From positions 82,852 to 146,851 of the forward strand of contig CAVZCV010000013.1 of assembly GCA_963773875.1 (NCBI GenBank): a stretch of 64,000 nt of DNA, read 5' to 3'. Numbering within the stretch: the first letter of the stretch is position 1; every line of letters starts with the position of its first letter. The stretch comes from Pirellulales bacterium. Lineage in GTDB: Bacteria; Planctomycetota; Planctomycetia; Pirellulales; JADZDJ01. Below are positions 3,774-7,746 of this stretch, piece by piece. The translations under genes and the position numbers were made by a program. A model generated the notes under the pieces. It was not told the DNA's origin. It did not search any database and worked only from the letters and a program-made list of their open reading frames with translations.

Positions 3774-4133
3774 ATGACACCTCGAGAAATAGTCCAGCGA
3801 TGGGTAGAGCGTTTTAACGCGGGGGATGCCGATGGTTTAGCGGCGTTGTATGCGGATTCGGCTACGAACCATCAGGTCGCGAACGAGCCGATCGTCGGAC
3901 GCGCCGCGATCCATGCGATGTTTGTGCTCGAGTTTGCTGCCGCTAAGATGCACTGCATTCCTGAGCACATTTTTGAGGATGGCCAGTGGGCGATTTTAGA
4001 GTGGCGTGACCCGCTAGGTCTTCGTGGCTGCGGCTTTTTCCAGATCCAAGGCGGGCTCATTGTCTTCCAGCGCGGCTACTGGGATAAGCTGTCGTTTCTT
4101 CGCCTCCACAAATTGCCGATGCCGAGCGAATGA
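3774..4133 (+). CDS. SnoaL-like / NTF2-fold (ketosteroid-isomerase-like) protein
   Basis: MTPREIVQRWVERFNAGDADGLAALYADSATNHQV... is the canonical SnoaL/NTF2-like N-terminus. ATG at 3774 preferred over the TTG at 3720 of the same ORF. Confidence 0.75.
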   Translation: MTPREIVQRWVERFNAGDADGLAALYADSATNHQVANEPIVGRAAIHAMFVLEFAAAKMHCIPEHIFEDGQWAILEWRDPLGLRGCGFFQIQGGLIVFQRGYWDKLSFLRLHKLPMPSE

Positions 4134-4148
4134 AGAATGAAGATGTCT

Positions 4149-4259
4149 AGCGGTACGTGTGGGATTGAGATGAACGGCCCTTTCAGGGCCGGTGAAATTG
4201 TCGGTGTCCGGTTTCCCAGGCCGTTGGCCTGGGCTGGTGGAAGCGACCTTTCAGGTCGG
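4149..4259 (+). repeat. REP-like hairpin cluster, copy A
   Basis: agcggtacgtgtgggattgagatgaaCggccctttcagggcc...cccaggccgttggcctggg...cgacctttcaggtcg. By eye ~14 mismatches over ~111 nt versus copy C. Hairpins: GGCCCT-ttc-AGGGCC, CCCAGGCC-gtt-GGCCTGGG, CGACCT-ttc-AGGTCG. Confidence 0.8.
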
Positions 4260-4410
4260 CCTGGAGGCCACTTCCACTCAAACTCAAGCCAGCAAGCTTT
4301 GGATGACAGAGCACTGGCATAGCCAGTGGCACCCAGTGGGAGCGCGTTGGCAGAATCTAGACCGAGGGCTAGCCAGTGCGGATTTCTTCGGGATGTTCGT
4401 TTGCGTTCGT

Positions 4411-4495
4411 CCGGCCTGAAAGGCCGCTTCTGCTAGCCCAGGCCGAAGGCCTGGGATTCGAATTGATGAAAGGCCCGTTCGACCTGAAAGGTCGA
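4411..4495 (-). repeat. REP-like hairpin cluster, copy B (inverted orientation)
   Basis: ggcctgaaaggcc gcttctgctag cccaggccgaaggcctggg ... cgacctgaaaggtcg. Its central part equals the reverse complement of copy C (cttctgttagcccaggccgaaggcctggg). Confidence 0.75.
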
Positions 4496-4571
4496 TTCTT
4501 TAGAACTGCGAATCGGGTATAAGGAATCGCTCGATCCCACCATTCAAAAAAGGCCATCCGCGAGTTCCGCC

Positions 4572-5024
4572 GTGTCGCAATCGTTAGCGAAAGTGTATTT
4601 GCACGCCGTGTTCTCCACGAAAAATCGCGAACCGATTTTGGCCGACGCCTGGCGCGACGAGTTGTTTCACGTCATGGGCGGGTCGGCGAAAAACCTGGGG
4701 TGCCAATCACTGATTGTCGGCGGCGTGGCCGATCATGTGCATCAGTTATTCATTCTGGGTCGGACCATCACGATTGCCGACGCGGTCGGCAAGATCAAAT
4801 CGACCTCGTCGTTATGGGTCAATCAGACGCGCGGATTGCCCGCGCCATTTCATTGGCAAGCGGGCTACGGTGCGTTTTCGGTCAGCCAGTCGAATGTCGA
4901 GGCGGTTCGCGAATATATCCGCACGCAACCGGAGCATCACGAAAAGCAATCGTTTCAAGATGAATTACGTGAATGGTTGCGTCGGTACGAAATCGAATGG
5001 GACGAGCGGTACGTGTGGGATTGA
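4572..5024 (+). CDS. IS200/IS605-family Y1 (HUH) transposase, REP-associated (RAYT-like)
   Basis: 150 aa: MSQSLAKVYLHAVFSTKNREP...VADHVHQLF (HxH of the HUH motif) ...WQAGYGAFSVS (catalytic Tyr region). Typical 'transposase IS200-like' architecture. No TnpB partner. The 3' end overlaps REP copy C. Confidence 0.85.
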   Translation: MSQSLAKVYLHAVFSTKNREPILADAWRDELFHVMGGSAKNLGCQSLIVGGVADHVHQLFILGRTITIADAVGKIKSTSSLWVNQTRGLPAPFHWQAGYGAFSVSQSNVEAVREYIRTQPEHHEKQSFQDELREWLRRYEIEWDERYVWD

Positions 5025-5114
5025 GATGAATGGCCCTTTCAGGGCCGGCGGCATTGTTGGCGGCTGGTTTCCCAGGCCTTCGGCCTGGGCTAACAGAAGC
5101 GACCTTTCAGGTCG
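5006..5114 (+). repeat. REP-like hairpin cluster, copy C
   Basis: Starts inside the last 7 codons of the transposase ORF and has the same three hairpins as copy A. Stems are conserved while the inter-hairpin spacers and one loop differ. Confidence 0.8.
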
Positions 5115-5132
5115 AGACAGCCGCGCGGGATT

Positions 5133-7746
5133 TCAGCCACGAAGCTGAGCCCGTCGTCGGCGAAATCCGCACAGCAGGAGCGCCGGCAGGCCGAGCGCGA
5201 AAATGGTAATCGCTGTCGGTTCGGGTACAGAAACAGCTGAGCCGCCGCCTTGGGCAATGACGAGATCCAGCAGGCCTTGGATGTCGCGGTTCGTCACTGT
5301 GCCGGAGGAATCGAAGTCGCCGATCGAGGCCAGCTGCACCGGGCTGAGTGCGTTCGTCGATTTGTACGCATTCAAATCGGTTAGCGCGGAAAGCATGGAC
5401 GGAATATCGGCGGCGGTTACCTGGCCGTCGCGATTCCAATCGCCCTGCAAATAGGTTTTGATCACCGACAGCGTGCCCGAGGCGTAGAGCTGCGTGGTAT
5501 CCCAACCCAGCGGGCCGCCTGGAATGGCCGGCAGCGCCAGCGACGAGAACGCACCGCTTACGGTGCCCCAGTTCAAAATATCGAATGTTTGACCAAGCTG
5601 CGGATGAAAACCATTGATCAGCGAAACTTGCAGCTTGCCGCCAAGATCGAGTTGACCGCTGGCGTTCACCTGATCGAACTGCGTGCCGGGCGTAAGTCCA
5701 CCGATCTCGATGAAGAGCGTATTGGAATCTGTAAAGGCTACGTGACCGTCGAGCGAAACAGCCGCGGGACTGTTTCCTGGACTGTATCCGCCTTCGAACA
5801 GTTTCGCGCCAGTGCCGGTGAAGGCGCCGGCTCCACTGACGTGACCGAAAAACACCGCCGTGCTGCCGGCGCTCACGCGAAACAGATCGCCATTGTGAAC
5901 GACCGGGCCGTAAAACGTGACATTGCTATTACCACTGACGATGATTTGTCCGCCAGGCAGGTGGTCCGCCGGAATTTGCGGCGGCATTGGTAACTGCGCC
6001 GAAGATATCGCTCGTGCCGAACGACACGTTCAGCCCGGCGACGTTGTTCAGCCCGCCTGCAAAATCGACTTGTGCGTTGCGGACATTGATCTGCCCTGTC
6101 GCAACCGGTTGATTGTCGATGTCGTTAATGATCGTGTTATCGACCGACGAGGTAAACCGCATCGACGTGCCGATGGCATCAATGCGATTGAAGTTCAGCA
6201 CGTTGTTGCCGACAAGGCCACTTCCGTGCAGCACGCCAAGGTTTGAAAGAAATCCGCCGCTGATTTGACCGCCAGCCAGATCGACCTCGCCGTAGTTGTA
6301 CGCGCCAAAGTTGACGGCCGCGACTCCGCCGTTCAAATTCAATTTGGCTTTATCGTTGACGTACAGGAATTCATTCACGGTCAGTTGCCCGCTGGGCTGC
6401 AAGCGCAACTCGGCTACGCCAGAAATGTTGGCGTTCAGATCCAAACTGCGGACGGTCGTCGCCGTTGATGGTCCGGTAATGACAGTGCCGTAGTCTGGAT
6501 GGATGTTCGTCGAAACAACCGCGCGCGGCTTCAATCCGAATGACCAGTTGCTGGCGGAATCCCAATTGCCGCTCGTGTTGGCGGTGTACTCATACGATTG
6601 CTGCGCGACGAATATTCCCTTGCTTGAATCGGCAAACGTGGCCTGAAATGAGATGTTGCCATTGCTGATCGCGTCGGATCCCAGCGTGATTGAACTGATT
6701 TGTTTGCCATCGAGCAGCACTGACTTGTCGATCACTCGAGTTAGTGTGCCACCGTAATTCGTATACACACCTTGCTGGGTCCCGCTACCGGTCGCCAAAA
6801 ACGCAACCGAGCCACCGCTGAACGCGAGGGCAGAGAACGAACTGAAGTTTCCCGTGCCACTGGGAATTGGCGTTGTGCCATCTGCCACCGCGTTGAGCCC
6901 GCCGATATCGGTATAGACCCCGCCTTGCGCATTGCCCTGTCCGATGAAGGCGACGTTTCCGGCGCTGACGACCTGCGCATCTGGAAAGCTGATGAAACTC
7001 CCCGTGCCGCCGGGAATGGCCGTGCTCGTGTTGGCGATCACATGCAAAGAACCGCCGGTCGTGGCATAGATTCCTTGCTGCCCACTATTGCCGGTGGCGG
7101 AAAAAGCGAGCTCGCCGCCATCGATCGATGGCCCCGTGCCGAACCCGATAAAATTTCCAGTGCCGCTGGGAACTGCCGTGTTCCGATTAGCGACAACGTT
7201 CAAGCCCCCCACAGAGCTGTAAATGCCGTCTTGCGTTGGCCCGCCACTTGTGAACGCTCCACGAAAGACAACATTGCCGCTACCATCCATCGAGGGCGAA
7301 TTGAAAGCATTAAACTGGAAGCCGGCGCTGCCGGGAACCGGCGTGGAAAAATCGGCCACGCGAACTAAATCGCTCGTATACACCCCACTTCCCGTTGGAC
7401 TGGGCGTGAACGCAATCTTGCTGCCACTAACCGTGCGCAGATTAAACCCGAGGAAATTGCCGGCGCCATCGGGGATCGGCGTGTTGGTATCGACAAGCTT
7501 GGCCAGCACGCCTCCGTTGCTCACATACGCCGCAACATAGTTGCTGGGCGAAGTCCGGGTGCCGGTTAGCGCCACGTTGAACCCATCGAGCGCCGGCGTG
7601 GTGCCAAATGCGTTAAATGTGCCGGTCACGAGCGGAACGGTAGTGTTCGTATCCGCAATTTTTGCGAAATCATAATCAACGGCCCCGCTGCGATTCGCAG
7701 CGAATAAGACGACTACTGCACAAACAAATAATTTCGCGCGACTCAT
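5133..7746 (-). CDS. PEP-CTERM-anchored surface protein with NxxGxxAF-like tandem repeats and a dockerin-like pair; reading frame broken once
   Basis: ORF 5929..7797 (real start MSRAKLFVCAVVVLFA at 7746; ~8 repeats of T.IP.GTGNF..F....GG.VAF.....GIY) continues in ORF 5133..5987 (GDWNRDGQVTAADIPSML / GDFDSSGTVTNRDIQGLLD, then VPEPTAITIFALGLPALLLCGFRRRR). The same domain order is contiguous in the paralog 7895..10294. Junction ~5965-5985 at an AAA/TTT run. Confidence 0.8.

Follow-up and report, generated by a model that had tools for sequence, protein, structure and literature searches.

The stretch of DNA analysed here, referred to as the window, comprises 64,000 nucleotides (nt) of a Pirellulales bacterium (assembly GCA_963773875.1, contig CAVZCV010000013.1, positions 82,852 to 146,851 of the forward strand). 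It contains the gene tnpA (4572..5024, + strand), an intact HUH/Y1 transposase-like gene of the kind acting on single-stranded DNA (ssDNA), encoding 150 amino acids (aa) from a GTG start. The gene stands among three copies of a composite repeat, here called arms, each built from short hairpins: arm A (4171..4261, + strand), arm B (4409..4499, − strand) and arm C (5027..5117, + strand), the last beginning 3 nt past the tnpA stop codon. Across the gene family, tnpA and the arm are associated; free arms and arm doublets occur in related genomes; and the stems of the arms covary. We consider it probable that the window holds a REPtron-like locus, in which an IS200-related HUH/Y1 enzyme of the TnpAY1 subclass 1.2 type is kept among arms that are its cognate ssDNA substrates, in the manner of the repetitive extragenic palindromic (REP) sequences and their REP-associated tyrosine transposases (RAYTs).

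The GTG start of tnpA lines up with the ATG of its homologues (MPQSLAKVY...), and its product is 100% identical to database entry P0001. The product matches the Pfam family Y1_Tnp (PF01797) at E=1.6e-22 and 80.3 bits (cut-off 23), and it barely exceeds the cut-off of the NCBIfam IS200 model NF033573 (55.4 bits; cut-off 55). Its motifs are DHVH at residues 54-57, W95-Q96 and Y115-IRT-Q119-PE-H122-H123, of which D54-H55-V56-H57 and Y115 are invariant across 44 and 85 homologue sequences. The original prediction, made from the letters and their open reading frames (ORFs), had described this ORF as an HUH/Y1 gene without a TnpB partner, and this description holds: the whole 64 kb contains no TnpB and no second Y1/tnpA gene. 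The protein ends in the conserved block FQDE..R..L....EWDERYVWD, whose last nine residues, EWDERYVWD, are >90% invariant in the 85 sequences. Because the codons for these residues differ at synonymous sites between homologues, the constraint is on the protein. The alternative of a DNA signal in the end of the ORF, overlapping the arm, was rejected, since the synonymous positions vary freely.

The three arms were described with a covariance model, R1, built from 39 aligned arms of the window and other loci and covering the Planctomycetota form only. Arm A (88.1 bits) has hairpin 1 at 4176-4190, hairpin 2 at 4215-4233 and hairpin 3 at 4244-4258; in arm C (90.3 bits) these lie at 5032-5046, 5071-5089 and 5100-5114. 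Arm B (85.6 bits) has hairpin 3 at 4412-4426 and hairpin 2 at 4437-4455, and at the position of hairpin 1 it carries a hairpin of the hairpin 3 type (4480-4494) plus a half hairpin (4467-4480). Folded as ssDNA, a check that had been proposed for these copies, each gave three hairpins, with z from −3.6 to −4.3 (−3.64 for arm A, −4.3 for arm B and −4.15 for arm C). All other matches of R1 in the window were noise or reverse-strand echoes.

Two direct copies and one inverted copy had been predicted, and the repeat search agrees. In the direct repeat, 4149-4258 and 5005-5114 share 87% identity; the inverted copy (4411-4456 plus 4479-4499) is 85-95% complementary, and between arms B and C the complementarity is 93%. 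There are 15 mismatches in 111 nt between copies A and C, rather than the ~14 estimated by eye, and none of the 15 falls in the 40 stem positions (P=7e-4), which bears out the conservation of stems that had been claimed. The accompanying claim that all hairpins share TTC/GAA loops was correct in that each copy has three hairpins and needs amending in two details, as the middle hairpin of arm A has the loop GTT, not TTC, and the hairpin 1 position of arm B is occupied in the way described above. Perfect TTC/GAA-triloop hairpins with a stem of at least 5 bp are concentrated here, with 8 in 4176-5115 and 4 in the remaining 64 kb, where ~0.9 are expected per loop type. Likewise, CCCAGGCCNNNGGCCTGGG is present three times, all at the tnpA locus, with 0 expected.

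Copy A carries at its 5' side an orphan tag, AGCGGTACGTGTGGGATTGAG (4149..4169, + strand), that equals the last 21 nt of the tnpA ORF (5005-5025), although no ORF precedes it. The tag had been noticed in the prediction, and the identity in fact runs over the first 26 nt of copies A and C. This footprint of the gene-arm junction is what a local segmental duplication would leave, in which duplicating and inverting the 3' flank of tnpA gave rise to three copies that neither move nor have a function; such an origin would also suit the lack of a further copy in the 64 kb. We regard it as very improbable, and the comparative data already contradict it. The arm architecture is kept beside homologues on dozens of unrelated contigs in phylum-level lineages, and it recurs as free copies. 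In addition, the mismatches avoid the stems, and the stems show compensatory changes.

These changes are apparent from the 39-arm alignment, in which the layout of the arm is fixed at 88-91 nt. Hairpin 1 has the consensus (T/C)GAAC-GGCCC-TTTCA-GGGCC-G, i.e., with a GAAC-like 5' foot. A spacer of about 22 nt, constant in length and variable in sequence, leads to hairpin 2, CCCAGGCC-loop-GGCCTGGG (CCCAGG...CCTGGG), which is followed by an invariant GCT. After GCT come about 7 nt ending in GAA, giving a linker of about 10 nt in all, and then hairpin 3 (CGGCC-TTTCA-GGCCG), which resembles hairpin 1. Of the cells in this alignment 99% pair, six pairs change on both sides, and none of 500 shuffles reaches the observed values. 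Further support comes from 137 units, counted at positions that the search pattern had left free: one pair of hairpin 3 occurs as G-C in 78, C-G in 24, A-T in 10 and T-A in 2, and a second pair as C-G in 101 and G-C in 33. As judged from these alignments, the stems of the arms covary. The foot of the arm is GAAC, GAAT or GAAG, with no GT[AG]G or CGTC foot, and the curated REP table of Quentin et al. contains nothing resembling TTTCAGG or CCTGAAAGG, nor this type of REP.

The association of gene and arm extends far beyond the window. A metagenome scan yielded 80 further tnpA homologue loci with 53-87% protein identity, and after the stop codon almost all of these have hairpin 1, the spacer, CCCAGG(G)...(C)CCTGGGCT, the linker and hairpin 3. 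Even though R1 was trained on Planctomycetota, it gave 120 matches at E<=1e-3 in 59 of the 80 loci, down to a protein identity of 53%. At loci of ~55% identity, hairpins 1 and 3 are altered (e.g., GCAACCCCTTCGGGGTA), but hairpin 2 keeps its base and the GCT after it. In a non-redundant set of 65 homologue loci, each with flanks of 250 nt or more on either side, a direct hairpin 2 lies within 300 nt downstream of the gene in 49, an inverted hairpin 2 lies upstream in 45, and 37 have both, at typical offsets of +45 to +55 downstream and −80 to −100 upstream. In a minority of the 65 loci the arrangement is reversed, and some carry alternating arrays on either side of the gene. The two arms of one locus share exact stretches of up to 46 nt; because these include the variable interior of hairpin 2, the arms of one gene evolve in concert. 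At two loci (L062, L125) a 17-nt tandem repeat, CCCATCCACACCCAATA, lies between the tnpA stop codon and the arm; it is present twice in one sample and four times in the other.

Free-standing arms were sought in a genome collection with the pattern CCTGGGCT-N4-GAA-N2-G-N-CCTTTCAGG-N-C, which extends from the 3' half of hairpin 2 through the linker and hairpin 3, and which yields copy numbers that are lower bounds. The unit was found in at least 116 genome stretches, nearly all from Planctomycetota; the source contig of the window is not among the matches listed. The matches listed include Fimbriiglobus, Limnoglobus (the complete genome of L. roseus PX52), other Gemmataceae, Pirellulales, Isosphaeraceae and Phycisphaerales, and four fragmentary Gemmatales metagenome-assembled genomes (MAGs) each have at least 9 to 12 separate unit-bearing stretches. 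The hairpins are therefore conserved in relatives of the host, a point on which the original prediction had been made to depend. Of the 116 stretches among the matches listed, taken as loci of up to 8 kb each, only 14 gave a tnpA homologue by tblastn, and the arm is therefore chiefly a free-standing repeat. Viral contigs gave 0 matches to the arm pattern, and a viral vector for the arms was rejected on this ground. Arms of the planctomycete type also occur on contigs binned elsewhere, namely L036, L111 and L117 (Alcaligenaceae) and L096 (Verrucomicrobiales), of which L117 also has tnpA; either mis-binning or horizontal transfer would account for these.

Many copies of the unit form inverted doublets of 180-220 nt. 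Among the matches listed are 13 inverted doublets of 180-262 nt, 10 of them without tnpA nearby. Their order is h3'-h2'-h1', a short centre and h1-h2-h3 (h1 to h3 denoting hairpins 1 to 3), which is the geometry of arm B, tnpA and arm C minus the gene. In this they resemble REPINs, the doublets formed by REPs, or miniature inverted-repeat transposable elements (MITEs). Tight inward pairs, with h3 facing h3', and a "double-footed" form with a shared hairpin 2 are present as well. Fimbriiglobus MAGs (L014, L018, L020, L029, L069, L075, L093) have a 25-nt insertion in hairpin 2 and an extra outer terminal inverted repeat, GGGTGTGGCAAATCTTTCTGGC / GCCAGAAAGATTTGCCACACCC, forming MITE-like units of about 300 nt. 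A different variant was seen at L025:500-620 and L080:1100-1260 (Phycisphaerales CP070718), where tandem hairpin 3-type units, GAACCGGCCTTTCAGGCCG, follow one another at ~30-nt intervals with a single hairpin 2.

The same doublets can be read as gene-deleted copies of a mobile module. The locus might be an autonomous insertion sequence (IS), a self-mobile IS200 variant consisting of an inverted arm, tnpA and a direct arm, perhaps extending out to the repeat at 4376/5172, with the free arms and doublets as derivatives similar to MITEs or palindrome-associated transposable elements (PATEs), and with a selfish gene. Several observations suit this explanation. The arms of one locus are near-identical, yet they differ between loci, as long terminal inverted repeats do. 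The module in the window lies between the two members of an exact 11-nt inverted pair. Moreover, tnpA occurs in unrelated contexts (type I restriction-modification operons, sulfatase genes, two-component systems), a few of its copies carry frameshifts (L020, L028), and both the fold and the NCBIfam match are of the IS200 type. However, canonical IS200/IS605 ends are direct, in a family without terminal inverted repeats, whereas the arms here are inverted. There is no second tnpA in the window, clusters of tnpA homologues are mostly on one contig each, and more than 85% of the arm-bearing stretches among the matches listed lack tnpA. Subclass 1.2 was published at 1.7 copies per genome with 36% identity between copies, and the composition of tnpA has ameliorated to that of the host. 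We therefore consider an autonomous IS possible but rather unlikely.

The compositional data are as follows. Across 45 loci the guanine-plus-cytosine (GC) content of tnpA follows that of its flanks (r=0.70, range 0.46-0.73), with tnpA on average 5 points lower. In the window, the GC content at third codon positions (GC3) of tnpA is 0.67, compared to 0.63-0.66 for most neighbouring genes. The single copy in the window, the homologue clusters confined mostly to one contig each, the low published copy number and the host-like GC and GC3 together point to long residence of tnpA, and we rate a resident, REPtron-like gene higher than an IS.

The tnpA homologues in restriction-modification contexts deserve separate mention. 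At L001:2500-3950, L002:2100-4700 and L058 (downstream of tnpA), tnpA and its arms lie in or beside type I restriction-modification operons, placed either between the genes hsdM and hsdS or immediately upstream of hsdM. At L001, the N6_Mtase gene appears split. A link of tnpA to defence systems was sought with PADLOC, which returned zero matches for the gene, and was rejected.

The assignment of the enzyme to a class relies on published motifs. Quentin et al. (2018) describe TnpAY1 subclass 1.2 by DH[IV]H, WQ and YIKNQKEHH (Y---Q--HH), a median length of 148 aa and a specific C-terminal domain; they report 1.7 copies per genome that are just 36% identical to each other, mainly in Cyanobacteria and Bacteroidetes. 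In its motifs and its length, the tnpA protein carries the signature of subclass 1.2, and it appears to fit the subclass in every feature but the published lack of REPs. Two other classes were considered and rejected. The TnpAY1 found in Planctomycetes belong to class 3 (Quentin et al., 2018), which has a CnGA foot and the differing motifs NHVH, W[TA] and YV..EQ. A class 2 RAYT/TnpAREP identity conflicts with the Y-motif, which is YIRTQP and not Y---NP; because the Y---NP motif is lacking, the protein is not a classical RAYT.

The predicted fold agrees with this placement outside the RAYTs. Among solved structures, the sole match by sequence was 2fyx (E=0.008). An AlphaFold2 model (predicted local distance difference test 82, predicted template modelling score 0.78) matches the TnpA proteins of IS608, ISDra2, IS200 and Sulfolobus at E about 1e-7 and template modelling (TM) scores of 0.6-0.7, and it matches TnpAREP 4er8 more weakly (E=3e-4). 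The RAYT part of the original prediction is not supported. Its broader idea of a REPtron survives in part: a single Y1 gene stands among its own structured repeats, with free copies in relatives and conservation down to 53% identity, but the enzyme is no RAYT and the repeats lack a GTAG foot. Some homologues bear the JGI label "REP element-mobilizing transposase RayT", which we take to be a generic name from COG and have not counted as evidence. Bertels et al. (2017; PMC5581495) described a "RAYT-like IS200 Group 3" without duplicates or plasmid copies, with abundant flanking 16-mers. Judged by this description only, we suspect that Group 3 is the same branch as the tnpA protein.

The family is large, with about 8000 database relatives, many of them more than 80% identical; the 120 best matches have 79-100% identity and represent several orders of Planctomycetota. 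In a library of representatives at 50% identity, 184 clusters matched the tnpA protein at E<=1e-30 and 4393 at E<=1e-10. Homologues from different Planctomycetota orders exceed 80% aa identity at about 79.5% nucleotide identity, which indicates strong purifying selection on tnpA. Many representatives (P0125, P0126, P0128, P0130, P0134 and others) are ~270-300 aa long with two matched stretches, i.e., tandem-fused double Y1 domains of the tnpA family. Such fusions are notable, as the IS200-type TnpA acts as a dimer.

How enzyme and arm may work together can be modelled on the TnpA of IS608 and ISDra2 and on TnpAREP of E. coli, in which a dimer with HUH and Tyr recognises hairpins and cleaves ssDNA. 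By analogy, the arm hairpins would extrude from transiently single-stranded DNA, e.g., the lagging-strand template, and a dimeric HUH/Y1 protein would bind them, probably through the family-wide invariant hairpin 2. The protein would then cleave nearby by means of Tyr115 and a metal site formed with His55/His57 and rejoin the ends, and this cut-and-rejoin reaction could copy or move arms and arm doublets to new sites. Hairpin 2 and GCT are the best candidates for recognition, because they alone are constant over 53-100% protein identity. Hairpins 1 and 3, which are alike, direct on one strand and provided with a GAAC-type foot, look like the left-end and right-end hairpins of a mini-element of the IS200 type. 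The constant spacer length, 22 nt, points to a geometry imposed by the protein.

A different role for the hairpins is suggested by Rfam. The model of the motif Acido-Lenti-1 (RF01687) scores 26.2 bits at 5071-5114 (+ strand) and 24.2 bits at 4412-4455 (− strand) in the window, under its gathering score of 37. The scores rise to 32.8-34.2 bits on free-standing units of L057 and to 28-36 bits beside many distant tnpA homologues, and directly downstream of tnpA in L199, a 53%-identical homologue, the model reaches 40.0 bits and passes the gathering score. Weinberg et al. (2010; PMC2864571) published Acido-Lenti-1, with 89 representatives from Acidobacteria and Lentisphaerae, as a probable small RNA (sRNA) whose function was unknown. 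Its Koribacter copy reads CCCAGCGC-UCAC-GCGCUGGGCUA..., i.e., the same hairpin 2 base plus GCU, and a Lentisphaera representative viewed with its flanks has, 22 nt upstream of hairpin 2, a hairpin similar to hairpins 1 and 3, which completes a three-hairpin arm. Overall, the motif shares with the arms an 8-bp stem CC.AG...CU.GG, GCUA, about 10 nt and a 5-bp hairpin with a UUC loop, and it likewise occurs in multiple copies per genome; it differs in that the units of the window reach only 24-26 bits, short of the gathering score of 37, and in that it was published as an sRNA without a link to a transposase. The h2-h3 unit is a sub-threshold relative of this orphan Rfam motif. None of six codon variants of the tnpA 3' end was found in the 2010 Acido-Lenti-1 alignment with flanks, a search that is uninformative because most free arms are not beside tnpA. 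In the literature searched, no paper ties Acido-Lenti-1 to a transposase or describes such REPs in Planctomycetes.

The two-hairpin unit might accordingly be a structured RNA, either a relative of the candidate sRNA Acido-Lenti-1 or an element that stabilises or terminates transcripts, with its place beside tnpA due to regulation or coincidence. The RF01687 matches to h2-h3, up to 40.0 bits beside the distant homologue, speak for this, and so does the fact that Acido-Lenti-1 was proposed as an RNA from covariation; covariation alone fails to separate RNA from ssDNA hairpins. Yet the units occur in both orientations, in inverted doublets and on both sides of tnpA, which suits DNA palindromes better. 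There is no T-run after the hairpins in the outward direction, terminator-like matches are weak, and promoter and terminator scans at the tnpA locus gave nothing above shuffles. Furthermore, DNA hairpins are established substrates of the enzyme class encoded by the neighbouring gene (IS608, TnpAREP), and Acido-Lenti-1 itself has no known function or demonstrated expression. An RNA element is hence improbable. We see about even chances for a broader reading, in which the arm, with an h2-h3 part that Rfam lists as Acido-Lenti-1, is a conserved ssDNA substrate, rather than an RNA, of a very widespread and strongly conserved class 1 (subclass 1.2-type) Y1 family that would span Planctomycetota, Acidobacteria-like, Lentisphaerae-like and other lineages, and which would form a second partnership of the REP/REPIN-RAYT kind, distinct from class 2.

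Some points weigh against a REPtron-like locus. Subclass 1.2 is given without REP by Quentin et al. (2018). A search of the whole 64 kb with R1, filters off, found no arm beyond the three at tnpA. The Fimbriiglobus doublets with outer inverted repeats could be movable by another transposase. Lastly, 50% of the units lie in long stop-free stretches compared to 88% of random positions, a weak test of intergenic location in these GC-rich genomes.

Some further features of the locus bear on possible breakpoints. A second orphan tag of the tnpA 3' end, at L060:6440-6500 (minus strand), has the same start nucleotide, T|AGCGGTACGT..., as that at 4149-4169 in the window. Both tags begin at AGCGGTAC, 27 nt 5' of hairpin 1, and the L060 tag sits elsewhere relative to tnpA than the tag of copy A. 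The shared start may be a preferred breakpoint or cleavage site; since the free doublets lack this leader, the signal stays an unexplained hint. The 11-nt pair mentioned above consists of GTGCGGATTTC (4376..4386, − strand) and its inverted partner GAAATCCGCAC (5162..5172, + strand), the sole two exact copies in the 64 kb, which bracket arm B, tnpA and arm C. The partner lies inside the 3' end, in the last codons, of a convergent PEP-CTERM ORF (5133-5987, ending at 5133), whose nearest homologue is only 59% identical. The neighbour on the other side is a SnoaL-like gene ending at 4133.

Together with its relatives, the locus shows that a class 1, IS200-like branch has a repeat partner of comparable specificity, whose three-hairpin geometry is fixed and holds at 53 to 100% protein identity, and the known arrangement of REPs with a tyrosine transposase extends to a transposase branch published without such repeats. 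In Planctomycetota, the partner repeats have multiplied both singly and as palindromic doublets. What Rfam lists as an orphan "sRNA" may be part of this DNA element, which suggests re-annotation of one Rfam family, and the arms offer a concrete candidate substrate for biochemistry on an uncharacterised Y1 subclass. The system is also a test case of whether REP-type domestication happened more than once, or whether subclass 1.2 is an intermediate between IS200 and RAYT.

Among known systems, REP/REPIN-RAYT is the textbook example of a host-kept transposase, so far with class 2 enzymes and GTAG-tagged hairpins, mainly in Proteobacteria. REPtrons of E. coli and Pseudomonas, with their REP and REPIN repeats and bacterial interspersed mosaic elements (BIMEs), were described by Nunvar in 2010, Bertels & Rainey in 2011 and Ton-Hoang in 2012. 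In common with these, the window has a low-copy HUH/Y1 gene of host-like composition between inverted repeats of small hairpins, the repeats are dispersed as singlets and inverted doublets, and repeat and gene co-vary between lineages. However, the enzyme is of class 1 (Y---Q--HH) rather than class 2 (Y---NP), the foot is not GT[AG]G, the repeat is a fixed three-hairpin composite of ~90 nt instead of a single REP of 20-40 nt, and the dispersal is seen in the genomes of relatives.

The IS200/IS605 elements (IS608, ISDra2 and the PATEs) provide the best structural match, the Pfam and NCBIfam type, and small short-loop hairpins beside the gene. They differ from the locus in its inverted arms, its lack of tnpB, its one copy in 64 kb and the conserved 30-aa C-terminal extension of its tnpA product ending in EWDERYVWD, and the match to 2fyx is marginal (E=0.008). 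Subclass 1.2 agrees with tnpA in the motifs, the length of ~148-150 aa, the conserved C-terminal domain and the low copy number. In contrast to subclass 1.2 as published, the gene here has a defined repeat, and its hosts are chiefly Planctomycetota along with other lineages of soil or freshwater.

The TIRYTs (terminal inverted repeat-associated tyrosine transposases), in which a Y1 gene lies between long inverted repeats that are also moderately abundant as free repeats (Di Nocera et al., 2013; PMC3733652), likewise combine a Y1 gene with flanking long inverted repeats that exist free. They are mostly of class 2.1 with helix-turn-helix tails and have the repeat consensus GGGG[AT][CG]A[CG], whereas the repeats here are hairpin composites and the enzyme is of class 1. 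Compared to all of these, the locus in the window appears to function like a REPtron, yet to belong neither with the RAYTs nor with the canonical IS200 elements.

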